NCBI GenBank assembly: GCA_015059155.1
Contig: SVAX01000002.1
Location: 85,561 to 149,560 of the forward strand
Length of the DNA stretch: 64,000 bases
Source: Bacillota bacterium
GTDB lineage: Bacteria; Bacillota_I; Bacilli_A; RF39; UBA660
Direction of reading: 5' to 3'
Position 1 is the first letter of the stretch. Each line of letters opens with the position of its first letter. A model generated the notes under the pieces. That model worked only from the letters and a program-made list of their open reading frames with translations, ran no database searches and was not told the origin of the DNA. The translations under genes and the position numbers were made by a program. Positions 1 through 25,277 of the stretch are shown piece after piece.

Positions 1-528
1 ACCTACAAATATTACGAGTGTTATAACACTTGCCAAAGTTGGAATCGCTATTTTCAAGAATTTAGCAGTAAATTTTAAATTTACTTCTCCACCATCAGTA
101 GTTTGATCTTCTACTTCTCTTCTATCTAAAAATGAATTTTCCTTACCAGGCGCTACTGCATTACCTTTCATATTAGATTTTGATGCAAAAGGCATAGAAC
201 TTTTCTTTTTACTTAAAGCATTACTTATTCTATTACTAGTGCCATTTTGATTTATTTTATTCATGGTCTTGTTTGCTAATAGCCCACCTGGAGCAAACTT
301 ATTTACTTTATTTAAAGTTTTACCTAATGCTTGTGAACTTCTTCCACCAGTTAATTTATCTGCAGCTTTAACTGCAGTTCCAGCTGCTCTAGCATAAGGA
401 TTAGGAGCTCTTCTTGCAACATCAGCAAGATTTCTCACATTATTAGCATTGTTGGCAACATTACGTTGTTTCAACATTTCTGCTTCTGTTAATTGATTTT
501 CTTCAGGGACTTGATATTGTTCTTCCAT
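1..528 (-). CDS. Partial CDS (runs off window) downstream of virB4; soluble N-terminus then start of a hydrophobic segment; product unknown
   Basis: ATG at 528 with GGAGG RBS at 536-540; frame MEEQYQVPEEN...FLKIAIPTLASVITLVIFVG stays open to base 1; absent from the ORF track because truncated. Confidence 0.7.
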   Translation of the reverse strand, partial: MEEQYQVPEENQLTEAEMLKQRNVANNANNVRNLADVARRAPNPYARAAGTAVKAADKLTGGRSSQALGKTLNKVNKFAPGGLLANKTMNKINQNGTSNRISNALSKKKSSMPFASKSNMKGNAVAPGKENSFLDRREVEDQTTDGGEVNLKFTAKFLKIAIPTLASVITLVIFVG

Positions 529-548
529 AATGTTACCTCCAATCTATA

Positions 549-2333
549 TTATAATCCTCCACCACTACCAAATGATTCTAATTCTTCATCTGATACAATT
601 ACATTAATACGCATTCTTCTGCTTCCACATACGAATAACGCTTCACCTTGTTGATATTGTTTTATACTTTCTTTTTCATTATCATTTAAATCTATTAATT
701 TAGCTAAATCATCAACTGCTTGTTTTTTTAGTCCCATTACTAAATAATAAGAAGCATTATCAAATATAGCTTTACCTTGAGTTATAACACTAGGATCACT
801 AAAATCTGTAGGTTGTTGAGTTATTATAATTGTTCCAGTATTATATTTTCTCGCACGTCTTTGAATTTGTGCTAAAAAGTCAGCACCCAATGTATTTCCA
901 CCACTAAGTAATACATGAGCTTCATCAACCATCATGACAGTATTTACAGAACTATCTAAAGTTAATCCCCAAGCATATTTTAATATATTAAAGAATAAAG
1001 CATTTCTAATATTTTTATCAGCATTCATTAACTCTCTAATATTAAATACTATAAAATTACTTCTTGGCTTAATAGTTGTATGACCATCAAAATAATACTT
1101 AAGTTCTTTTACAATCGGTCTTATCTTTATCTCAAGTCTTTCAAGAACATCTTTTTCTTGAGACTTTTCTGGCATAGATAAAATTCTACCTTTTATTGTC
1201 GCATAAACATCTTTAAAAGTAGGATAATCCTCTGAATTAAATTTAGTAAAATCAACATTGAAATCTATACCAAATCTTTTATACGTCTCTTGAACTACTT
1301 CACTAAACATATTTACTACATCTTCACTAATACTAGGATCATAGTATTTTAAGAAAGCTTTTATAGATTGCAGTGTACGTGTTAAAACAGTATAGCCTAA
1401 ACCTTGTTTCATCTCTTCTTCATCTGCATCTACAATTACTTCAAGTGGATTTATCATACCAAAAGATCCACCTTTTCCTAAACTAATGAAATCCCCATCA
1501 AATGTATTAGTCATATCCTCTAATTCACCTTCAGGATCTATAACTACTATTTGATTATTATTTCTAATATGACTTCTTAAAAGTAATTTAGCAGCAGTAG
1601 ATTTACCACTACCAGAAGTACCTAAAATAATCATATTAGCGTTATTACGATTGTGTTCTTTCTTAATTTGATATAAGAATTGGTTAAATAAAATAACTCC
1701 ACCAGAGAAATCTATTCCAAGTAATGTAGATAATCCTGGATCTTTAATACTATCAAATATAAAAGGATACATAGCAGCTATTGTAGGAGAAGGTATAGGT
1801 GTTCCTATTCTATCTTCTATATCTTGTTTATTAAATATAGGTAATATAGATTTTAACACCTTATCTTGTTCAAAACGAAGAGGTACAGCTCTCATTTCCA
1901 TAGCTTCTAAATAATTCTTAACTTGTAATTTTTTAACATCCAATTCATCCTTAGTATTTGCAGTAATCATAACATGCATTTGAAAATCATAAATCTTAGA
2001 TTGACTAGCAGCTAATTCACTTATAAACATTTCTAAAGATTCATAATCTTGACGTATTCTTTCTTGAATAGTCTTATCTTTTTCATCTTGATATCTTTGT
2101 TTCAAATCAGCAAGCTCTTTATTAAGCATTTTACTCATACTACTAAAAGGAAGTGGTATATGTTTAATAACAACTTTAATTCCTGACATACTAGTTAAAC
2201 TACTTAAATATCCAGGATAAACAAACTTAGGATATGAAATTATTGTTAAAATACAGGCATACTTATCACTAATAACAAATTCACTAGGCTTAAACTCCAA
2301 TCCCTTTGGAGCAATTTGACTTCTTATATCCAT
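549..2333 (-). CDS. virB4: VirB4/TraE-family T4SS ATPase
   Basis: Walker A GTSGSGKS, IDPEGE motif, Walker B MMVDEAH, RRARKY and IITQQP motifs typical of VirB4. Confidence 0.9.
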   Translation of the reverse strand: MDIRSQIAPKGLEFKPSEFVISDKYACILTIISYPKFVYPGYLSSLTSMSGIKVVIKHIPLPFSSMSKMLNKELADLKQRYQDEKDKTIQERIRQDYESLEMFISELAASQSKIYDFQMHVMITANTKDELDVKKLQVKNYLEAMEMRAVPLRFEQDKVLKSILPIFNKQDIEDRIGTPIPSPTIAAMYPFIFDSIKDPGLSTLLGIDFSGGVILFNQFLYQIKKEHNRNNANMIILGTSGSGKSTAAKLLLRSHIRNNNQIVVIDPEGELEDMTNTFDGDFISLGKGGSFGMINPLEVIVDADEEEMKQGLGYTVLTRTLQSIKAFLKYYDPSISEDVVNMFSEVVQETYKRFGIDFNVDFTKFNSEDYPTFKDVYATIKGRILSMPEKSQEKDVLERLEIKIRPIVKELKYYFDGHTTIKPRSNFIVFNIRELMNADKNIRNALFFNILKYAWGLTLDSSVNTVMMVDEAHVLLSGGNTLGADFLAQIQRRARKYNTGTIIITQQPTDFSDPSVITQGKAIFDNASYYLVMGLKKQAVDDLAKLIDLNDNEKESIKQYQQGEALFVCGSRRMRINVIVSDEELESFGSGGGL

Positions 2334-2872
2334 TATGCTAACACCGTCCCAAAAGTAGTAGTTTGTCCACCATTTAAGAAATTATCTAAAATCATTCTTA
2401 AATCATCATTATTAGTTTGAAATGCAGTTAATCCTGCACTAGCAAAATTATTAATTAAAGTACGTATCCTTTTTTGTATTAAATCATTATCCTTTTCCTT
2501 AAATAATAAGAAATATTCTGTATCAACAACATTATTATTCGTAAACATATTAGCCTTGTTTAAATCTTCTAATATAAGTTTTCTTTTTTTAGTATCCCCA
2601 ATTTGATTATATAATAATTGTAATTGAGATAAATAAACATTAATATCTACTGGTCTATCTGCAACTACAATCCAAAATTCATAATCGATAGCATTATAAA
2701 CATTTTTTAAATTCATTATTATAGCATCTTGCATACCTTGATCAAGTATAAAAATATTTCTTGGCATTATTTTAACTCCAGTAACCTTTTGATTATTATC
2801 AAGTACAATAACTCCATTAGTAATATTCTTTACAGGAACATCAGTATACTTACTTTTTGTCTCTTTCGCCAT
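2333..2872 (-). CDS. VirB4-associated protein resembling a detached VirB4 N-terminal region
   Basis: Likely start MAKETK at 2872; stop overlaps the virB4 start; resembles the N-terminal part of Gram-positive TraE/VirB4 proteins (by eye). Confidence 0.5.
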   Translation of the reverse strand: MAKETKSKYTDVPVKNITNGVIVLDNNQKVTGVKIMPRNIFILDQGMQDAIIMNLKNVYNAIDYEFWIVVADRPVDINVYLSQLQLLYNQIGDTKKRKLILEDLNKANMFTNNNVVDTEYFLLFKEKDNDLIQKRIRTLINNFASAGLTAFQTNNDDLRMILDNFLNGGQTTTFGTVLA

Positions 2873-3170
2873 TATCAAAACACCAACCCTTCCATATATA
2901 TCTTTGTCTTGTTGTATAAAAATTCCAAGCATTTTTTATTACAGTTCTTACATTGTGGTAATTTGGTATCGGAAGTACCAAAAAACCACATATAAGACCT
3001 GGAGAAACAGTTAACACTGCTACCCAAAATTCATTGACAGGAAGGAACATCATAAGTAAGAATGATATTCCCACACCACATCCAAATATTATTAAATCGA
3101 CTGTATTAAATACCCCAAATATAAGCATACTCTTCTTTGAGTTTGCGGGTATTAAATAAGAATAATCCAT
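2850..3170 (-). CDS. PrgI/VirB3-like two-TM protein
   Basis: 106 aa, N-terminal YLIPAN, two hydrophobic helices, lies between virB6-like and virB4 genes. Confidence 0.65.
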   Translation of the reverse strand: MDYSYLIPANSKKSMLIFGVFNTVDLIIFGCGVGISFLLMMFLPVNEFWVAVLTVSPGLICGFLVLPIPNYHNVRTVIKNAWNFYTTRQRYIWKGWCFDNGERDKK

Positions 3171-3190: not shown

Positions 3191-5518
3191 TTATGGTCTA
3201 CCTGGACCCATTGGCCCCATTGGCCCCATTCCAGCCCCTGGACCGCCAGTACGACGACCAACTGTAGATTCTGCTTGTTCTATTTTACCAGGACGAGCTG
3301 GGCCTCCTGCTGTTGAATGAGTAACTTCAACATTTGACTTAGCAACTTTTTCATCGGCATTAAGTCTGTCAAGAATTTCTTGTGTTTCTTTAATATCTTG
3401 ATCAATGCTTTTAATTTTTTGTTCTTTATCAAAAATGCTTGTGCTATCTTTTGTGTTATCTGCAGCGATTGTTTTAATTTGTTTATCAAGTGCTTCTGCA
3501 AAAGATTCTCCAGATGTCGTAAACACGTTTTCAAGACCTGCAACTCTAGCTTGATTTTCATATTTTTCTTTTAAATTTTGCAATTCACCATCTTCTGAAA
3601 TGTTTGCTGCTAACCAGTCATCTCTATATTTACCATTAGCCTTTTGTTCTTCTTCAGCCCTTACTTTTGTTGCTTCTTCTGCTTTGTTTTTTGCTTCTTT
3701 TTCTGCTCGTTGTGCTTCTTTAAGAAAATTTTCTGCCTCTTTTGTATTTCCTTTAGCTTTTGCTTCTGATGATTTTAAATATAAAGAGGAAGCTAGTGAT
3801 GATTTAAGTGAAGCTTCGTTTTCTAGTGCGGCTGCTTTCGCCATTCCTTTTTGGTACTCACCATCAGGAGCTTGTTTTACTTTATTTACAGCTCTATCTT
3901 GCATTGCCTTTAAAGTAGCTGCAGCATCTGATTTTTGTTGAATTCTTCTTCTTACAGGCTCAATTTCATTATCTATTCTCTTTTTTTGTGCATTAAAATT
4001 ATCAATCCTATTTTGTGTTGCTATTTTTTCGTGTTCAACCTCTCCTAAAGTTCCTGGTGTTCCTAAATACCCACTTAATTGAGCTCCTCTTCTTCCCCAA
4101 AAAGTTGATCCGCTAGCTATAGCTCTTCTCATCTCTGCATTTTTTGTTGCTTGATCTTTTCTAATTTCACCAAACTTTTTACCTTGAAAACCTGATTTCA
4201 ATCCCCCGAATGTAGCAGACAACCCTCTACCTACTCCAGTACCAGTTAACATACCAGCTGTTCCAACCATAGCGCCTGCCGCTAAACCTTTTCCTGCTCC
4301 TAATATTTGCTTACCACCTGCGGCTTGTTCACTAAATTTCTTCAATGGATTCAAGAAGAACTTACCGTCACCATCTAACTTAATACCTAAACCTTCTAAG
4401 ATTTTTGGTAATTGTTTAGCAAACATCAATACCCCTATTATAACAAATATTTTTACCAATGTAGTAGTTTGATATGAACCATCAACTATATCTACCATTT
4501 TATTTATTCTACTTATAATATAAACTGCAAAATAAATTGCAAGTAATCTTATAAACAAACTTAAATAAGTTTTAAAACATAATTGATACCATTTTTTAAA
4601 CATTCCATCTTTTCCACTTTTAGGATCTACATAAGATAAAATTGGTATTGGAGCTATTAATTGTAAGAATGCTAATTTTATACTACGAAGTGCTATATCC
4701 ATACAGAATGTTATTAATAACAAAATTATTACAACACCTACTACTGTACTAAATATATACTTATAATCCATTATAAATTGTTGATTACGAGAATCAGTCG
4801 CAACCACCATCTCTTGTCTAAACATTAATCCTAAATTTCCATGCTCTACACCCGCTACATAATTTTGAAGTGCTGTTAGAGTAAAATTTTTATTATCTAT
4901 TAAAGCTGCCATTGAGTTATCATGAGCACTGCTATTATCATTATAATTTTCATCTAACCCTGAACATGCCGGATTAAAATTACCATCTTCGCCTTTAATA
5001 TCAATACAATTTTGCAATTTGGTAATAGACACATTAGGGGTAAAAAACGCACTCATGGTTATAAATGCCATATCATCTCCTGCTGTATTTATAAACTCAT
5101 TACCTGATTTATTGTCATCTCCAAATATTAAAGTAGCCATTGTATTATCTTCTAATATTATTGTTTGTAATCTATATGCGTAATTAAATATATATGGAGT
5201 TAATATTAATAACGACAAACTAATTATTATATTAGTAGTTAATTTAGATATTCCTTTACTCTTATCAGAAAAATCATCCGGATTAACTACATAAGTAATT
5301 AAAGATAATGTTACTTTAAAAATCATAAATATTGCAAGTAACTTATATATTCTATCAGCCATATCCAATATATCAGCTTGAGAAAGTATAGATGTTCTTG
5401 CTATTGATATTAATAAATCATAAATAGATGATATAAGATTATATACCACTTGATCTATTCCAAAGAAAAATTGTTTGATTAATTTTTGAAACCACATATT
5501 TATTGATAAAATATACAT
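3191..5518 (-). CDS. VirB6/TrbL-like polytopic membrane protein with long coiled-coil and Gly/Pro tail
   Basis: Multiple TM segments; DIALRSIKLAFLQLIAPIPILSY motif; Gly-rich GAGKGLAAGA segment; charged coiled-coil C-terminus; RBS GGAGG. Confidence 0.75.
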   Translation of the reverse strand: MYILSINMWFQKLIKQFFFGIDQVVYNLISSIYDLLISIARTSILSQADILDMADRIYKLLAIFMIFKVTLSLITYVVNPDDFSDKSKGISKLTTNIIISLSLLILTPYIFNYAYRLQTIILEDNTMATLIFGDDNKSGNEFINTAGDDMAFITMSAFFTPNVSITKLQNCIDIKGEDGNFNPACSGLDENYNDNSSAHDNSMAALIDNKNFTLTALQNYVAGVEHGNLGLMFRQEMVVATDSRNQQFIMDYKYIFSTVVGVVIILLLITFCMDIALRSIKLAFLQLIAPIPILSYVDPKSGKDGMFKKWYQLCFKTYLSLFIRLLAIYFAVYIISRINKMVDIVDGSYQTTTLVKIFVIIGVLMFAKQLPKILEGLGIKLDGDGKFFLNPLKKFSEQAAGGKQILGAGKGLAAGAMVGTAGMLTGTGVGRGLSATFGGLKSGFQGKKFGEIRKDQATKNAEMRRAIASGSTFWGRRGAQLSGYLGTPGTLGEVEHEKIATQNRIDNFNAQKKRIDNEIEPVRRRIQQKSDAAATLKAMQDRAVNKVKQAPDGEYQKGMAKAAALENEASLKSSLASSLYLKSSEAKAKGNTKEAENFLKEAQRAEKEAKNKAEEATKVRAEEEQKANGKYRDDWLAANISEDGELQNLKEKYENQARVAGLENVFTTSGESFAEALDKQIKTIAADNTKDSTSIFDKEQKIKSIDQDIKETQEILDRLNADEKVAKSNVEVTHSTAGGPARPGKIEQAESTVGRRTGGPGAGMGPMGPMGPGRP

Positions 5519-5618
5519 CTACATTCCTCCTAAAAATTTTTTATTTAATATTTATACTCATATCATGATTATAACAAAAAAACTACAATTAATCAATGAC
5601 TAATTGTAGCTTTTACTA

Positions 5619-6008
5619 TTAATAATTTATTGTATCTGTAGGTATACACCCGTTATCATTTATCTTTCCGTTTACAAAACAATTGAAACAATTAGAAACG
5701 CTTCGATCTCTGTTAGAAACAAATCCTATTAAAAGTTGAACAATTTGAATAACAAAGAAAACAATAACTGCTGCTACAGCTCTTTTTATAAACATTTGTT
5801 GTCCTTTTTTTATTTCATCTTCCTTAGATGCAGCTACAGCTTTTCCTAAATCCAGCATACCAAAAATAATCAATAAAATTGGCACAAATATTTTAATTAA
5901 TAAAACAGCTGTTGAAACTAAATAAGGGAAAGTTCCAGCAAAATCAAATCCTAAATTACCACATCTATAAAGAGTATCTAATTCAAAAGCATCTACTAAA
6001 AACATCAT
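5619..6008 (-). CDS. VirB2/TrbC-like pilin paralog 1
   Basis: Two TM helices separated by DLGKAV..KEDEIKKGQQMFIKR; C-terminal CFNCF. Confidence 0.65.
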   Translation of the reverse strand: MMFLVDAFELDTLYRCGNLGFDFAGTFPYLVSTAVLLIKIFVPILLIIFGMLDLGKAVAASKEDEIKKGQQMFIKRAVAAVIVFFVIQIVQLLIGFVSNRDRSVSNCFNCFVNGKINDNGCIPTDTINY

Positions 6009-6034
6009 TTAATCATATCCTCCTAACTAAATAT

Positions 6035-6063
6035 ATTATACATTTAACATTTTAAAAAGTCAA
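6035..6063 (-). promoter_or_regulatory. Sigma-A-like promoter for pilin 5619-6008
   Basis: Minus strand TTGACT-17 nt-TATAAT. Confidence 0.7.
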
Positions 6064-6065
6064 CC

Positions 6066-7178
6066 CTACTTTATAACATAAGGAGCTTCAAAAGTACCAT
6101 CTCCAGAAACTATTTTTTCAGTTCCATCAATATAAATAACTAAATTATAATTGTGATACTTACTCGCTTCTTGACTTCTTATTATGCCATTACTTAAATA
6201 ATAAACTTGATATGTATTATTAGACACGGCATTTAAAGTCCAAGACATTAAATTTAAATCTTTTAAATAATTATAATTTCTACAAGATTTAGAATAAATA
6301 CTATTACAATCCATATCTAAACTAGCTTTTGCATAATCAGTTACATCAATTAAAGATATAACTTGATTTTCTAATTTAGTTGAACAACTATAATCACCAA
6401 TAGTTCCATTATTTAAATCTCTAGAATCTATACATACATCTTTAGAAACAATATGTTCTTTTGCTGTATTTGATATGACTTTCACATTATTATAATCATC
6501 CATTAAATATTTTAATATAGCACTATCTGCATATATATTTTTTCCATATATATCATTAACATCTATATTATATTTATTATCCCAATATCTATCTAAAGAT
6601 TCTGATTCAGCTTTTATAAGCTTAACAATTCCATTTTCATCAATATTCATTATTCTATAATTTTTATCAAAAAATTTAACATAATTATTAACTTCATCAC
6701 CTTTATAAACATAATAATTATTTAATTGATATAAACCAGATCCCGTCGTAGTTAAATCTTCCATTAAATTATTTATTAAAGTATTAGTTTTATAATCTTT
6801 ACATTCTAAATTAGCAATATAATTTAAATAACCACCTTTATTTTCTGAAACAGTTGAACCATTTCTTCTAACAGTTACACTTCCTAGACAAGTATTATCG
6901 CCAATCAAATCACCAGTAGATTTTATATATTCTCTTCCTACTAATGTACTTAATTCAACTTCTCTTGTTTCTCCTTCTTTTGAAGGCAAACCAACAGTAT
7001 CTTCAAAGTAATTTTGTGCAGCTTCAATCATTCTTTCTTCATATTTTTCGGGTGTAATTTTTGAATTACCACAAGCTTGAATAATAGCTAAAAACACTAT
7101 TATCAATATAGGTAACAATATAATAATTCCAACTATTATTAATACTTTTTTATCTATTTTTTTTAATGCCTCTACCAT
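6066..7178 (-). CDS. Membrane-anchored Cys-containing surface protein (pilin/adhesin-like)
   Basis: N-terminal TM, amphipathic helix (ERMIEAAQNYF), several Cys pairs; embedded among pilin genes. Confidence 0.5.
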   Translation of the reverse strand: MVEALKKIDKKVLIIVGIIILLPILIIVFLAIIQACGNSKITPEKYEERMIEAAQNYFEDTVGLPSKEGETREVELSTLVGREYIKSTGDLIGDNTCLGSVTVRRNGSTVSENKGGYLNYIANLECKDYKTNTLINNLMEDLTTTGSGLYQLNNYYVYKGDEVNNYVKFFDKNYRIMNIDENGIVKLIKAESESLDRYWDNKYNIDVNDIYGKNIYADSAILKYLMDDYNNVKVISNTAKEHIVSKDVCIDSRDLNNGTIGDYSCSTKLENQVISLIDVTDYAKASLDMDCNSIYSKSCRNYNYLKDLNLMSWTLNAVSNNTYQVYYLSNGIIRSQEASKYHNYNLVIYIDGTEKIVSGDGTFEAPYVIK

Positions 7179-7188
7179 AAACCCTCCA

Positions 7189-7677
7189 TTATTTTAAACA
7201 AGCAGTACCATTTCCATTTATTGTCATTCCATCTGGACAAGTCTTTGAAGCCTCGTCTTTAAATTTATAAGTACAATCACCATTTATAAAACAGCTACTA
7301 CAAGTTGCAATATTAGCTTTATCATCTTCATCAGCAACAAAACTTATCAAAAGTTGAACAATTGTAAATACAAAGAATACCAAAGCTCCAGCTACTAGTC
7401 TTTTAATAAACATTTTTTGTCCTTTTTTCATTTCATCTTCTTTTGAAGCAGTCATACCTTTTACAAGATCAATCATACCTAATACAACAATTAAAACAGG
7501 AACAACAACTTTTATAACTGTTATTACTGTACTAACCATATTAGGTATTTTTTCATCTATAATAGCTCTTGGCATTGAACTTTCACAAGAAGCTATGTTA
7601 GCAGCTAAAACTGGGCTTGCATAACAAAAGACTACAAGAGAAATAATAATTCCAATTAATAAATTTTTCTTTTTCAT
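7189..7677 (-). CDS. VirB2/TrbC-like pilin paralog 2
   Basis: Signal peptide (VLA-A), two TMs, KEDEMKKGQKMFIKRL, CSSCF..C. Confidence 0.65.
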   Translation of the reverse strand: MKKKNLLIGIIISLVVFCYASPVLAANIASCESSMPRAIIDEKIPNMVSTVITVIKVVVPVLIVVLGMIDLVKGMTASKEDEMKKGQKMFIKRLVAGALVFFVFTIVQLLISFVADEDDKANIATCSSCFINGDCTYKFKDEASKTCPDGMTINGNGTACLK

Positions 7678-7680
7678 ATT

Positions 7681-8250
7681 TTACATCTCCTCACAATCAT
7701 TACTTATAAAACAATCAATACAATCAACCATATTAGATACATTAGTATCTGCTACTATACTTATAAAAAACTTAACTATAATAACAACAAAGAAAATTAT
7801 TGCAGCAACAGCAAGTCTTTTAATAAACATTTTTTGCCCTTTTTTCATGTCATCTTCTTTTCCTGCTGTTATACCTTTAAATAAATCTAAACTACCCATT
7901 ATAACTAAAATAATTGGTATGGCTATTTGAATTAATGTTACTGCATAACTTGTTAGTTCTGGTATTTTTCTAGGTATACCAGTTATCCTACCTTCATTTT
8001 TTTTGCCACAATAAACTTTTTTTATTTTGTTTCCTAGCAAAGTTTCCTCATCCGAATCCTTATCTATGTCTTGATTAGATTGTGTTTCTTCATCTGATAT
8101 TTCATTAATATCTCCATCTAATTTATACATCACTGTATATGTTGTATATCCTGTAACATATTTGTGTTCAAGTGACTCTGATGCGCTAACATCACCAATT
8201 AAAATAAATATACCAACAAAAAATATTAAAAATACTATTTTTTTTCTCAT
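7681..8250 (-). CDS. VirB2/TrbC-like pilin paralog 3
   Basis: Likely start MRKK at 8250; KEDDMKKGQKMFIKRL, CIDCF..C. Confidence 0.65.
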   Translation of the reverse strand: MRKKIVFLIFFVGIFILIGDVSASESLEHKYVTGYTTYTVMYKLDGDINEISDEETQSNQDIDKDSDEETLLGNKIKKVYCGKKNEGRITGIPRKIPELTSYAVTLIQIAIPIILVIMGSLDLFKGITAGKEDDMKKGQKMFIKRLAVAAIIFFVVIIVKFFISIVADTNVSNMVDCIDCFISNDCEEM

Positions 8251-8254
8251 ATAA

Positions 8255-8701
8255 TCACCACTTAGTATCACAATTTTTTGTAATAAAACAATCAGCACAT
8301 TGCATTATACGAACTGCTTTATTATCATTAGATTCATCATTAGCAACAAAACTTATAAGAAATTTTACAATTATAAATACAAAGAATATTAAAACAGCAT
8401 ATACTAATCTTTTTATAAATAATTGTTGCCCTTTTTTCATTTCGTCTTCTTTTCCAGCTGTTAAAGATTTCATTAAATCCATTGAACCCATAACTACTAA
8501 AACAATAGGAACTGCTATTTGTATAACATTATATAAAATACTTATCACATTAGGAAGTACTGTAGGTATTTTATCTACCATGTTTCCACCACAACTAGTA
8601 ATTCCTTTCGTATAGTTATTATAAGTTTCTGCACCCACAATGTCAATGAAAATCAAGTTTATTAATAAAATTAAACTAATATTTAATACTTTTTTCTTCA
8701 T
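8255..8701 (-). CDS. VirB2/TrbC-like pilin paralog 4
   Basis: Signal peptide, KEDEMKKGQQLFIKRL, CADCF..C. Confidence 0.65.
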   Translation of the reverse strand: MKKKVLNISLILLINLIFIDIVGAETYNNYTKGITSCGGNMVDKIPTVLPNVISILYNVIQIAVPIVLVVMGSMDLMKSLTAGKEDEMKKGQQLFIKRLVYAVLIFFVFIIVKFLISFVANDESNDNKAVRIMQCADCFITKNCDTKW

Positions 8702-11755: not shown

Positions 11756-12675
11756 TATTCAGCCCCCACATTCTCATTATAAAATTTAGTTCCAGCAAGT
11801 AAGAAATAAGTATTAACTATAACTATCAAATGCAGTATAACATTTACATACCACAACTCAAGCATTTGTTGATATGTATCTCCTAGCATTATTTGAACAA
11901 GAGCTATCATCATATATAAAACAAGTCCAAATGTAACAAATTTTTTATAAAAAGCTTCTCTATCAATTCTATCTCTATAAACAGATTCAACAAGCATATC
12001 TATATCTTGAGACATATTTTCTAATGACTCACTAGAATCTTTACTACCTTCATTAGTTATTTGAAGAAATAATTGATGCATATTTCTTACAATATAGTAA
12101 TCATATTTTTCATTCATGTATTCTAATGATTGATTAATTGTTCCATTTTCATAAGCCATATCTATCATAGTTTTCACATCCGATTTAACCGGATCTTCCA
12201 ATATTCCAGATGAATGAACTCCCTCTAAAGCTTTAACAAAACTTTGAGTAGTAGCAAATTCCATAATTACATTCGTTGTATACACTTGTATTTGCTCAAA
12301 TATAAATTCACTATATAATCTTTTACATCTTAAGTAACTAAGATATGGTACAGCTGCTACTGCAATTACTGCATATATTATTGAAATAACTAAATTATAA
12401 AAATATAAATAAGTTATTATTCCACCACCTAAAGCAAATAATATAACTTGCCCTATATATTGTTGCAAAGTATAATCTTGTTTTAGTTCTTTTATTTTTT
12501 TACGAATTTCTTTATATGTATAAGGAGCTACTTTACTATATAATCTATTTCCCTGTCTACTCACAAACTGATAAGCTTGAGCACCAGTATTACTTCTATA
12601 AAGAATTATAAATATAATTATTATAGCTACTATTATAAAAAGTAAAGTTATATTCATATCATCCCTCCTATTCAA
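11755..12675 (-). CDS. tadB: TadB-like membrane platform protein
   Basis: TM pattern, FVKALE motif, coupled to cpaF. Confidence 0.7.
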   Translation of the reverse strand: MNRRDDMNITLLFIIVAIIIIFIILYRSNTGAQAYQFVSRQGNRLYSKVAPYTYKEIRKKIKELKQDYTLQQYIGQVILFALGGGIITYLYFYNLVISIIYAVIAVAAVPYLSYLRCKRLYSEFIFEQIQVYTTNVIMEFATTQSFVKALEGVHSSGILEDPVKSDVKTMIDMAYENGTINQSLEYMNEKYDYYIVRNMHQLFLQITNEGSKDSSESLENMSQDIDMLVESVYRDRIDREAFYKKFVTFGLVLYMMIALVQIMLGDTYQQMLELWYVNVILHLIVIVNTYFLLAGTKFYNENVGAE

Positions 12676-13792
12676 ATATTATTTCATTTTTTTGTGGTGT
12701 CTCACTAATTACTACCTTTTCTTCTTTTTTATTATATTCTTCTTTTATAAAGCCATTAGGAAGCATAACACCTTGTGCTTCCAAATATTCAATTAAATAC
12801 TCACTTGGATTGTTTCTATAAACTTTTCCATCAGGGGATTTTTTATAAAGAGTATTATATTTGGCTTCATTATCTTTAGTTACATAAAATTCTGTAACTT
12901 CAGCAATTTCTCTTACGAATTTTTTAGAAATTTTATCTTGATATCCTCTAATATAAACACCAAGTTGAATATATCTATAAATAGATTTCAAGAATTGGTC
13001 TATATCCTGATTTGTTTCAAGCAAGCTATACATACGATTTGGTATAGAAGAAGCTTTATCTGCATGTATTGTAGATAAAATATAGTGTCCTGAAGAAATT
13101 GAGTTTCTAACAGCCATTACCGCTTCTGCACTACGAACTTCTGATAATAAAATCCATTTTGGATTTTGTCTCATACAAGTAACAAGAACATCAGAATAAC
13201 TAGCAATATTGTTAGTTTTCATAGCAACTATATCTCTGTTAGGATATATTCTATCTAAGTGTAGTTCCAAAGTATCTTCTATTGTTATTAACTTTTCATT
13301 TTCATACGTATTAGCGGCTAGATATTTAACAAATTCAGTCTTACCACTACCAGTTTCTCCACAAACTATTATATTACAATGTCCATGTACACAAGTTATT
13401 AAAAAATCTAAAATATCTTCTGTTATATAATTTTCTTTTAATATTTTATTTCTTTCTAAACGTATTTTAGCTGGAGTTTTACGTATAACACAAGCAATAC
13501 CATTTCTAGCAATAGAATCGTGCACAAAATTCATACGGAGTTCTGCACTTTCACTATCTAGAAAAGGATGAGCTGCATTAAAACTTTTCCCCATAACATT
13601 TGAACATTGAAAAGCTAATTTTTCAATAAACGCATTGTTTATAGCTGGATTATCTATTCTAAAAATCCCTTTTGACAAGGTTTTTAACCAAACTTGTCCA
13701 TTATTACTATAAGAAATATCCGTAATATCGTCGTTTTCTAAATATTCTTTAAGAGGACCAAAGTCCATTCCCTCAAATATATTATCGTGCAT
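12668..13792 (-). CDS. cpaF: CpaF/TadA (VirB11-family) pilus ATPase
   Basis: Walker A GETGSGKT, TIEDTLEL Asp box, MRQNPKWILLSEVR Walker B, STIHA His box. Confidence 0.9.
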   Translation of the reverse strand: MHDNIFEGMDFGPLKEYLENDDITDISYSNNGQVWLKTLSKGIFRIDNPAINNAFIEKLAFQCSNVMGKSFNAAHPFLDSESAELRMNFVHDSIARNGIACVIRKTPAKIRLERNKILKENYITEDILDFLITCVHGHCNIIVCGETGSGKTEFVKYLAANTYENEKLITIEDTLELHLDRIYPNRDIVAMKTNNIASYSDVLVTCMRQNPKWILLSEVRSAEAVMAVRNSISSGHYILSTIHADKASSIPNRMYSLLETNQDIDQFLKSIYRYIQLGVYIRGYQDKISKKFVREIAEVTEFYVTKDNEAKYNTLYKKSPDGKVYRNNPSEYLIEYLEAQGVMLPNGFIKEEYNKKEEKVVISETPQKNEIIFE

Positions 13793-14663: not shown

Positions 14664-15089
14664 TCAATACTTAGTCTCTAATATAGCATCTATATTATTA
14701 ACTATATCAAATTCAAAAATTTCTCCTGTAGCATTAGTTGAAGTAGTACTGGATACTCTTAAACTAACTTTAGGCGGTGCTTCATTGATGTCATATATTT
14801 CAATCAAATATGTGTTAGATAAATCTGCGTTTTGTGCAAATCTACGAATAAAACTTTCAACGAATTTTTCTTCTTCTATTCTTATGCATTTGTATTCATT
14901 TTCTGGAGTTTCTGTACAAGCTCTATAAGCAGCTAAATCCAAAGCATCAAACATAGCCGCTTCAACCGTTTCTTTTAGTAAATTATAATTGTGTTGATCT
15001 GTTTTAGTCATATTAGCAAAAAACCATATAACTCCAACAGCAAGAATACCAAGAACAAGAATTCCATATCCCCACATAGATTCTTTCAA
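14664..15089 (-). CDS. Pseudopilin-like protein (DUF5411-like)
   Basis: MKES + TM; LKETVEAAMFDA and FVESFIRRFA motifs recalled for DUF5411. Confidence 0.55.
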   Translation of the reverse strand: MKESMWGYGILVLGILAVGVIWFFANMTKTDQHNYNLLKETVEAAMFDALDLAAYRACTETPENEYKCIRIEEEKFVESFIRRFAQNADLSNTYLIEIYDINEAPPKVSLRVSSTTSTNATGEIFEFDIVNNIDAILETKY

Positions 15090-23855: not shown

Positions 23856-23897
23856 AATATTTTGTCTAAACAAAATATAGTCATAAAAAAGGAGTTG

Positions 23898-25277
23898 ATG
23901 ATTATAGAAAAGTTAGCATATTCACTACATTTAGGAAGTGATAGAAATAAAAGAAATAGTGCTAGAAACACTGCTAAAACAAATAAAAGTGGTACAACAT
24001 CACTATCAAATAATGCAATACAAAATGCTCGTGGATTATCAAGAGTAGATAAACATAATTATAGGAAGTACGACAACGACCAAGATAACATTGAAATAAT
24101 AAGAGGCACATCATCACTTTATGATGATGTGAAAAGATTATATATTGATGAGTTCGAAGATTCTCGTATTGAATATAACAAAAAACAAACTCGTGAGAAT
24201 AGAAAAATCAATGATTATTTCACACATGTTAGTAATAACTCTAAAAATGATTTGGCTTGTGAAATAATCATTGAACTAGGTGATAAAAAATATTGGGATA
24301 CAAAAGATTTAGAATTTAAGAAACGAATGACTAGTGTGTATGAAGAACAAGTTAGTGATTTAGAAAGTTTAGTACCTAATTTTAAAGTAGCAAGTGCAAT
24401 AATACATTATGATGAAACTAGTCCACATCTTCATATCGTAGGTGTTCCTGTAAAAAATAAAAATAAAAATGGAATGGAAAAACAAGTTGGAAAATCAGAT
24501 GTATTTACAAAAGAATCTTTAAGAAAATTACAAGATAAAATGAGAATATTATGTATTGAATCATTTAATAAAGAATATAAATTAAATCATACATTAAAAC
24601 AAAAAATGAAAGGTAGAGGCATAGATTATCACGTATCAGAAATGGATAATTATCAAGAAATGAAAAAAGAACTTGAAAAGAATCAAGAGAAATTAACACT
24701 TGCAAATGAAAAAGCACTAGAACTTGATACCATTTCTAAAAACACAAAAGACCTTGTTAATAATTTAAAAACTACTATAACTTCAAAAGATAAATATGTT
24801 TTGAAACAGGAAGATAAAGACAAAATTATAAACTATATTGAAAAAGTTGATAAAACAAATAAAGAATATAAAAATATTCAGACGCTTTCAATAACTCTAA
24901 ATAATGTAGATGAAGAATTAAAAGATAATAAAGAAAAAATAAAAATACTAACAGAAAATAATGAAGCACTTAATTTAAGGATAGAAACATTAAATAAAAA
25001 TATTGATAAAAAGAATAAAGAAATCAAAGAACTAAAAGAAGAAAATAATAAATTAAAACAAATGGTTATTAAGTGGAAGCAAAAATTCTTTGATATTATT
25101 AATTTTATCAGTAATAAAATATTTAATAAACACGATAGAGAAAAATATATGGACGTAACAACAGATTTGTTTGAAAATGATTTAATAGAATATAAAACTT
25201 ATGACTCTATTAGAGAAGATTATGAATATAGCGTTAAAAAAGATAAAAACAGAGATGATTTTGAAATAGGAATGTAA
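23898..25277 (+). CDS. mobV: MobV/Pre (plasmid recombination) relaxase
   Basis: HNYRKY motif I, HYDETSPHLH motif III, C-terminal coiled coil; exact start uncertain. Confidence 0.85.
   Translation: MIIEKLAYSLHLGSDRNKRNSARNTAKTNKSGTTSLSNNAIQNARGLSRVDKHNYRKYDNDQDNIEIIRGTSSLYDDVKRLYIDEFEDSRIEYNKKQTRENRKINDYFTHVSNNSKNDLACEIIIELGDKKYWDTKDLEFKKRMTSVYEEQVSDLESLVPNFKVASAIIHYDETSPHLHIVGVPVKNKNKNGMEKQVGKSDVFTKESLRKLQDKMRILCIESFNKEYKLNHTLKQKMKGRGIDYHVSEMDNYQEMKKELEKNQEKLTLANEKALELDTISKNTKDLVNNLKTTITSKDKYVLKQEDKDKIINYIEKVDKTNKEYKNIQTLSITLNNVDEELKDNKEKIKILTENNEALNLRIETLNKNIDKKNKEIKELKEENNKLKQMVIKWKQKFFDIINFISNKIFNKHDREKYMDVTTDLFENDLIEYKTYDSIREDYEYSVKKDKNRDDFEIGM

Follow-up and report, generated by a model that had tools for sequence, protein, structure and literature searches.

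We analysed five genes that lie on the minus strand within positions 5619-8701 of a stretch of DNA from a Bacillota bacterium (64,000 nucleotides, assembly GCA_015059155.1; hereafter the window). Four of them, P1 to P4, encode pilin-like paralogs, and the fifth, located between P3 and P4, encodes a protein of 370 amino acids (aa). On balance, we favour the reading that P1 to P4 are one major and three minor VirB2-type (T4SS_pilin-type) subunits of a vertically inherited, chromosomal type IV secretion system (T4SS) of the Gram-positive type, whose locus holds no relaxase gene. The genome, from an uncultured gut bacterium, is metagenome-assembled and comprises about 1.0 Mb with 25% G+C at 70% completeness; the window lies on its contig C9.

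Pilin-like paralogs P1 to P4 and the T4SS_pilin family

P1 (8255-8701, minus strand, 148 aa) carries a signal peptide (VGA/ETYNNY), an N-terminal cysteine in an SCG context, a helix-loop-helix and a CADCF...C tail. P2 (7681-8250, minus strand) comprises 190 aa when read from the MRKK start, with the longest open reading frame extending to 8298, and contains a signal peptide (VSA/SES) and an acidic N-terminal insert of roughly 60 aa. P3 (7189-7677, minus strand, 162 aa) combines a signal peptide (VLA/ANI) with an extended, cysteine-containing C-terminal tail. It is followed by the gene of the 370-aa protein (6066-7178, minus strand) and by P4 (5619-6008, minus strand, 129 aa), a pilin-like paralog without signal peptide. 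The Sec-type signal peptides of P1 to P3, and the lack of one in P4, were read by eye.

Pairwise identities between the four proteins ranged from 40 to 49%, and 31 alignment columns were invariant, including the motifs KED(E/D)xKKGQxxFIKR in the inter-helix loop and CxxCF near the C-terminus. A profile of P1-P4 recovered each paralog in its own genome with E values of 1e-57 to 1e-67, so that the paralogy is not due to chance. Each mature protein has an even number of cysteines, made up of one N-terminal cysteine, the CxxC pair and at least one further cysteine. The initial annotation had described four paralogs sharing the loop and the CxxCF motif, and coordinates, motifs, identities and profile search all agree with it. 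It had also called the N-termini unrelated. This description needs refinement, as an (I/F)P motif and a single cysteine, located 10-15 residues ahead of helix 1, are kept in all four proteins.

The T4SS_pilin model PF18895 (gathering cut-off 26.6 bits) aligned over its full length to all seven pilin-module genes of the genome, six of which were among its nine best matches there (18-23 bits, maximum 23.1, all below the cut-off). Its scores for the orthologous modules exceeded the cut-off in 12 of the 27 genomes searched from this taxonomic family, while no control genome responded. Matches above the cut-off were also obtained for proteins of about 100 aa in 14 other Bacilli; several of these proteins adjoin a VirB4 gene. 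At E<=0.01 the model detected 42 of 81 relatives, the best E value being 3.4e-7. Furthermore, comparison of the P1-P4 family with the T4SS_pilin members of other Bacilli by hhalign gave a probability of 73% and an E value of 3e-5 over the loop and the second helix. An exhaustive profile search returned 7,977 cluster representatives at E<=1e-3, and many of the 150 listed have long N-terminal extensions. The initial annotation had proposed searches for TrbC/VirB2 and Mbov_0395-like pilins. P1-P4 are recognised neither by the TrbC/VirB2 model PF04956 nor by the Mbov_0395 model (NF045849, cut-off 40 bits); the only match to NF045849 was P3 with 12.7 bits and an E value of 0.076. Weak Pfam matches of the module proteins to DUF621, TctB and GPCR families were rejected as noise caused by hydrophobic bias.

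An AlphaFold2 (AF2) model of P1, calculated from 81 homologs, reached a pLDDT of 79. It shows a helical hairpin (residues 48-82 and 85-120, pLDDT 82-92), in which helices of 35-36 residues are joined by a two-residue turn, preceded by a small N-terminal beta-hairpin and followed by a short third helix bearing the CxxC motif. The part of the initial annotation's proposal that describes T4SS-pilin-like proteins with a two-helix hairpin is supported by this model, by the full-length although sub-threshold PF18895 alignments and by the orthologs that exceed the cut-off. From these comparisons we place P1-P4 in the T4SS_pilin family as a diverged branch whose architecture and genomic neighbourhood are VirB2-like, although the model of TrbC/VirB2 proper does not include them.

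Orthogroups, P4 and the cysteine-bearing ends

All 36 genomes sampled from the taxonomic family contained the pilin module, and 35 of the 36 the VirB4 of this locus; outside the family both occurred only sporadically. The genus and other genera share the gene order of the locus together with its rhodanese and RmuC flank, and neither DNA nor protein searches of PLSDB (72,556 plasmids, pIP501-type included) returned a match. The T4SS is thus chromosomal and vertically inherited, at the same chromosomal position across the family. The order P1-P2-P3-[370-aa gene]-P4-virB6 recurs in 13 further species of the genus, with only three modules detected in two of the loci. In the tree, homologs of P1-P4 clustered by position and not by genome, which indicates that the paralogs are four fixed, ancient orthogroups and not recent variants. 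The low DNA identity of 63-71% between paralogs over a 247-nucleotide core argues in the same way for old duplications.

These relationships bear on the suggestion of the initial annotation that the proteins form a heteropolymeric or variable pilus. A heteromeric assembly fits four orthogroups in fixed order. Variability in the sense of recent diversification was not observed, given the divergence of the cores and gene-wide dN/dS ratios (NG86) of 0.16-0.42 for the pilins, compared with 0.05 for VirB4; dS values of 0.5-1.3 are near saturation, so that these ratios are rough figures. These values led us to reject gene-wide positive selection. Gene conversion and phase variation were also rejected, given the 63-71% identity and the lack of long identical tracts, conversion tracts, flanking inverted repeats and invertible elements. 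Across the genus, VirB4 proteins are 89-97% identical, VirB6 proteins 50-64%, the 370-aa proteins 47-71% and the pilins 46-82% (38% in one P2 pair). The pilin ratios indicate that exposed parts are under relaxed or diversifying pressure. Within orthogroups, identity was highest in the inter-helix loop (71-95%) and lowest in the N-terminal outer segment (31-42%), a gradient that would be expected of exposed termini and of a loop that faces the cytoplasm or lines a lumen.

P4 differs from the other copies in its transcription signals. A sigma-70-type promoter, TTGACT-17-TATAAT, followed by the Shine-Dalgarno sequence AGGAGG, is located at 6035-6063 (minus strand) and recurs in each of the 14 genomes of the genus that were inspected. 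As promoter-like matches in this AT-rich region are no more numerous than expected from shuffled sequence, it was accepted only because of its conservation in all 14 species. A perfect (12/12) promoter-like sequence, TTGACA-17-TATAAT, also occurs at 8618-8646 (minus strand) inside the part of P1 that encodes the signal peptide. Downstream of P4, an intrinsic terminator with a hairpin and a T-run (5578-5614, minus strand) was found in all 14 species, and 6 of the 11 pairs of its stem show compensatory changes. After this terminator, the invariant T-run is followed by TG(T/C)TATAAT (5568-5596), an apparent extended -10 element for virB6 (TGTTATAAT in the window), which is kept in the aligned species and, like the other elements, occurs in all 14. 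Promoter and terminator define P4 as a monocistronic unit, and P1-P3 are apparently co-transcribed with Tad-like genes located upstream of them.

P4 is also the most conserved copy, its loop being 95% identical across the genus. In a midpoint-rooted tree it grouped with pilins of other genera with a support of 90, below the tree's mark of 95, and it resembles the T4SS_pilin proteins of about 100 aa without signal peptide that occur in other genera and taxonomic families. Since a structural subunit is needed in large excess, the monocistronic unit with its strong promoter led us to propose P4 as the likely major subunit, with P1-P3 as minor subunits.

The cysteine pattern is a further hallmark of the family. 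Of 130 cluster representatives, 117 have one N-terminal and three C-terminal cysteines. This 1+3 pattern was also shown by 114 of 179 modules taken from species-representative genomes, and a 1+1 pattern by 39; the N-terminal cysteine was present in all 179 modules and a C-terminal one was missing from a single module. The PF18895 proteins of other Bacilli lack the pair of N- and C-terminal cysteines. This co-occurrence suggests that two exposed ends are tied together, either by two disulfides or by a zinc site of the Cys4 or Cys3-Asp type. Metal binding is favoured by the richness of the heads described below in CxxC pairs and by the precedent of a surface enzyme from gut Erysipelotrichales that contains structural Cys3-Asp zinc sites. 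Disulfides are favoured by the 1+1 forms, which cannot build a zinc site alone. The initial annotation had assigned the cysteines to stabilised pilus tips. This assignment was abandoned, as the cluster belongs to the exposed ends of every subunit and not to a tip.

Orthologs of P1 and P2 range from 129 to 316 aa in length because in some species a cysteine-rich head follows the signal peptide as an insertion; the number of cysteines in the heads was even in 84 of 97 cases. Three more copies of the hairpin module are encoded on contig C9 outside the window (66863-67909, 75341-76543 and 78332-79606), each at the C-terminus of a large, cysteine-rich, secreted head. They are located among housekeeping genes 7-27 kb from P1-P4, and two of them share a nearly identical module. 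In other genera of the family (L040, L041, L043 and L048) the module is N-terminal and fused to C-terminal domains of 200-250 aa, one of which looks by eye like an NlpC/P60-type hydrolase. The idea that pilin modules substitute for missing sortase anchoring was dismissed, since the genome has two sortases.

The 370-aa protein, the secretion locus and its surroundings

The 370-aa protein belongs to a length-conserved family without Pfam domain. It carries a lipobox-like IQ[AG]C36 motif and is predicted to be extracellular and membrane- or lipid-anchored. Its AF2 model (pLDDT 89) had a single significant Foldseek neighbour, the IgA peptidase of Thomasclavelia ramosa (9qa6, E 2e-4, 279 columns). 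This peptidase has a non-catalytic, C-type-lectin-like N-terminal domain of about 290 residues, which the match most likely covers; the aligned region itself was not reported by the search. An HExxH motif was not found in the 370-aa protein. A role as ligand-binding protein or adhesin, or as a VirB5-like partner, is plausible, making it a candidate for these functions. The putative adhesin that the initial annotation saw among the pilins thus gains plausibility from the predicted C-type-lectin-like fold.

The end of P4 lies about 100 nucleotides before virB6, which encodes an extended VirB6/TrbL-like polytopic membrane protein of 775 aa (3191-5518, minus strand; PF19597 TrbL_4, 33.9 bits; NF045889 Mbov_0396, E 3e-11). 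It is followed by a VirB3/PrgI-like protein of 106 aa (2850-3170, minus strand), whose match to PF12666 PrgI (E 0.0026) is below the cut-off and which aligns to positions 2-77 of NF045975, a model of a VirB3-VirB4 fusion. The VirB4 ATPase (549-2932, minus strand) is split into an N-terminal polypeptide of 199 aa and a C-terminal one of 594 aa, with NF045975 scores of 350.9 and 45.6 bits. The halves meet at a TAATG stop/start overlap at position 2333, and the split is kept in relatives. The best match, the NCBIfam Mbov_0397 model, spans the VirB3-like protein and both VirB4 polypeptides as one protein of 894 aa. The next gene, which starts within the window (1-528, minus strand), encodes a membrane-anchored wall hydrolase of 876 aa (VirB1 role) with an M23 peptidase match (PF01551, 80.5 bits) and a weaker glucosaminidase-like match. 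The genes that follow outside the window encode two small membrane proteins and VirD4, the coupling protein (PF02534, 192.9 bits).

Consistent with the association assumed in the initial annotation, homologs of the pilin-like genes are not located mostly away from virB4 and virB6: genes for VirB6, VirB3 or VirB4 lay within 6 kb in 46 of 78 related loci. Tad-like genes were present in 52 of the 78.

The start of P1 is only 8 nucleotides away from the last gene of the Tad-like module, a co-oriented block upstream of P1 (8710-15089, minus strand). Its firmly assigned member is an ATPase of the VirB11/TadA superfamily (12668-13792, minus strand; PF00437, 91.3 bits; TIGR02788, 115.8 bits), which matched best to VirB11 (115.8 bits) and to a model named 'TadA family conjugal transfer-associated ATPase'. 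This ATPase could work for the T4SS no less than for a Tad-type pilus. The remaining genes, assigned as Tad-like by size and topology only, encode two polytopic membrane proteins, a Flp-like protein of 75 aa, two pseudopilin-like proteins and a weakly CpaB-like protein. The block also includes a DUF5411 protein (14664-15089, minus strand; PF17424, 162.7 bits), which accompanies the locus in relatives, including those of another taxonomic family.

Housekeeping genes border the entire block: ScpA/B lie at one end, and rhodanese, RmuC, RNase R and SmpB at the other. Homologs derive from metagenome-assembled genomes labelled 'Bacilli bacterium' and obtained from gut samples of deer, rabbit, goat, mouse, pig and humans. 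The labels Muribaculaceae, Bacteroidaceae or Actinomycetes on some carrier contigs probably reflect mis-binned or mislabelled assemblies and not true hosts.

A relaxase search of the genome, at its completeness of 70%, gave no match to MOBP, MOBT or MOBQ, and none was found in the locus. The only matches, to Mob_Pre (MOBV), lie inside separate serine-recombinase elements on contigs C9 and C2. One of these elements (23862-25277 of the window; C9:109599-110105) is located about 4 kb past the end of the T4SS/Tad block. As a speculation, the chromosomal T4SS with its VirD4 protein might mobilise such serine-recombinase/Mob_Pre elements in trans.

Proposed model, alternatives and known systems

According to the reading we favour, each pilin would insert into the membrane as a helical hairpin, with the KEDExKKGQ loop in the cytoplasm and both ends outside. 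There, the invariant N-terminal cysteine and the C-terminal CxxC...C cluster would tie the ends together through a Cys4 or Cys3-Asp zinc site or through two disulfides. The subunit extracted by VirB4 and VirB6 would mainly be P4, forming a short, lipid-associated filament or stalk, which would cross the wall at an opening made by the M23 hydrolase. P1-P3, together with the lectin-like 370-aa protein, would act as initiator, tip or adaptor subunits of low abundance and expose fast-evolving surfaces for contact with other cells.

Several observations weigh against this proposal. The copies in the window align to PF18895 over full length but reach only about 14 to 22.8 bits (P1, 19.7; P3, 21.5), all below the cut-off of 26.6. 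None of the seven module genes was matched by PF04956 at E<=1 in a search of their own genome. Foldseek comparison of the P1 model with the PDB gave no match at E<1 and only generic helical hairpins, and a profile search of PDB sequences detected neither VirB2 nor TraA, so that none of the solved conjugative pilins (F, pED208, T-pilus) was matched; neither search can be diagnostic for a fold as simple as a helical hairpin. The disulfide version of the tie is weakened because no DsbA/BdbD- (Thioredoxin_4), DsbB- or VKOR-type gene was found in the genome; DsbA/BdbD- and DsbB-type genes were likewise not detected in 27 genomes of the genus, of which 15 reach a completeness of 90% or more. An end-to-end tie would also depart from known VirB2 pili. 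In the T-pilus resolved by cryo-electron microscopy the pilin ends are about 34 angstroms apart, and as T-pilin proved not to be cyclic, comparison with cyclic TrbC needs care. Finally, the assignment of P4 as major subunit draws only on transcription signals and conservation, and the pilus itself is a prediction.

An alternative that we regard as unlikely, though deserving serious attention, is that P1-P4 are integral-membrane channel or scaffold subunits that never leave the membrane, like the small two-helix protein TraB of pIP501 or PrgF of Gram-positive conjugation systems. No pilus would then be made, and the cysteine-rich ends would form a wall-spanning collar around VirB6. This would agree with the description of Gram-positive T4SSs as lacking pili, with the suggestion of Beltran et al. 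that VirB2 pilins arose from VirB6-related, true membrane proteins, and with the lack of a structural match to solved pilins. TraB, which is essential in its Gram-positive T4SS, likewise has a signal peptide and two transmembrane helices that are conserved together with a short cytoplasmic loop (PMC9083827). It is, however, single-copy, plasmid-borne and not considered a pilin (PMC9083827), no similarity to the window proteins was detected, and no homolog of the latter occurs on the 72,556 plasmids searched. Moreover, the matching Pfam model is T4SS_pilin, a marker of VirB2-like proteins in Patescibacteria, the predicted helices of 35-36 residues exceed the span of a bilayer, and the dedicated strong promoter and terminator of P4 suggest a large subunit excess that is typical of filament subunits.

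We consider it quite improbable that the paralogs are a device for variation as in Bartonella Trw or Patescibacteria, each forming an alternative homopolymeric pilus or adhesive surface that provides antigenic or partner-range diversity. Divergent multi-copy VirB2 arrays have been interpreted in this way in Bartonella, Anaplasma and Patescibacteria, and here both the outer segments and the heads show rapid evolution and differ in length from species to species. The four old orthogroups are, however, kept one-to-one across the genus with gene-wide dN/dS below 0.5. Conversion tracts or invertible elements are missing between copies that share 63-71% DNA identity, VirD4 is present, unlike in Trw, and the systematic differences in export signal and transcription unit point to a division of labour. 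Service of P1-P4 in the upstream Tad-like (type IV filament) machine, for instance as membrane platform or anchoring proteins, is more improbable still: the apparent co-transcription of P1-P3 with the Tad-like genes across the 8-nucleotide gap and the occurrence of such genes in 52 of 78 loci speak for it, but P1-P4 lack a prepilin-type N-terminus and match T4SS_pilin, P4 is transcribed separately directly upstream of virB6, and other Bacilli and a Mycoplasma-like genome have such a protein directly before VirB6/VirB4 genes, where no Tad-like genes were noted and none were searched for.

The T4SS of Patescibacteria, for example that of Ca. Southlakia epibionticum (PMC12102498, PMC12857230), resembles the locus in several respects. 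Both have a chromosomal, monoderm set of MPF-FATA type (VirB1, VirB3, VirB4, VirB6 and VirD4 roles) and an array of divergent PF18895/PF04956-type pilins near virB4, usually without relaxase and in a reduced host genome. A conserved chromosomal position, a locus without relaxase and a divergent pilin array were all found here. In 3,035 Patescibacteria genomes, 441 arrays of 2-11 pilin genes have been described, some with an interrupting non-pilin gene; they lie in chromosomal MPF-FATA-type systems, mostly without relaxases. The initial annotation had assumed that pilins usually occur once per system, a generalisation at odds with the arrays known from Patescibacteria and Bartonella. As judged from its gene content, the locus is the same kind of system as the Patescibacteria T4SS with pilin array, in a family of Bacilli. 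It differs by its host, by four fixed orthogroups, by a monocistronic P4 without signal peptide, by the cysteine pattern of the ends and by the combination of the T4SS with a Tad-like module in one operon-like block.

Other Bacilli with T4SS_pilin proteins and the Mycoplasma integrative and conjugative element (ICE) with Mbov_0395, Mbov_0396 and Mbov_0397 share with the window a small two-helix protein directly before VirB6-like and VirB4 genes. VirB6 and VirB4 of the window match best to the Mbov_0396 and Mbov_0397 models, and those small proteins have no signal peptide, like P4. In contrast to the four core and three head-bearing copies found here, they are single-copy proteins of about 100 aa without the cysteine pair. 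The strongest PF18895 match in the class, 49.3 bits, was a 102-aa protein of a Mycoplasma-like genome (L034, G283; TGA read as Trp), which lies between DprA-like and VirB6-like genes beside enolase.

Bartonella Trw, for which a role in surface binding has been proposed, also combines several divergent pilin genes (trwL, VirB2; trwJ, VirB5 copies) and an adhesin-like gene in one T4SS locus (PMC12857230). It belongs to a diderm, lacks VirD4 and has tandemly amplified, variable copies, whereas VirD4 is present here and the copies are ancient and non-redundant. The archaeal Ced/Ted systems for DNA import are likewise domesticated, chromosomal machines of conjugation type in single-membrane cells (PMC9905601). 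Their pilins parallel the two classes found here, as CedA1 is unprocessed like P4 and TedC is cleaved by signal peptidase like P1-P3 (PMC9905601), without any detectable sequence relationship to the window proteins.

A literature search yielded no published account of this T4SS/pilin locus of the Bacilli family. The four fixed orthogroups, the autonomous P4 without signal peptide, the cysteine clasp, the lectin-like partner and the fusion with a Tad-like module appear to be new, and the conserved clasp has no counterpart in the published accounts of conjugative pilins that we compared. More tentatively, and with more doubt than belief, we propose that a Firmicutes family builds a true VirB2-type pilus, with P4 as major and three minor subunits and a zinc or disulfide clasp, alongside a Tad-like pilus. 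The pilus would be part of a domesticated T4SS, without relaxase in its locus, that serves obligate cell-to-cell exchange, in line with proposals for Patescibacteria, or mobilises the small adjacent serine-recombinase/Mob_Pre elements in trans.

A chromosomal T4SS without relaxase in its locus and with a pilin-like array is a fixed part of the core genome in a widespread family of Bacilli that live in animal and human guts and have genomes of about 1 Mb. The locus offers a testable division of labour between the candidate major subunit P4, three exported minor subunits that can bear variable heads and a lectin-like partner. According to a review of December 2025, VirB2 and VirB5 are found among Gram-positive T4SSs only in those of Patescibacteria, in which an array of six pilin genes is essential (PMC12857230). 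That review, a second one (PMC12102498) and a primary paper of 2023 (PMC9905601) describe Gram-positive or monoderm T4SSs as being without VirB2-type pilins, with Patescibacteria as the sole exception. If a filament is made, conjugation-type pili would extend to Firmicutes, which would overturn the view that Gram-positive T4SSs lack pilins, and Bacilli with reduced genomes would be linked to the cell-contact biology proposed for Patescibacteria.

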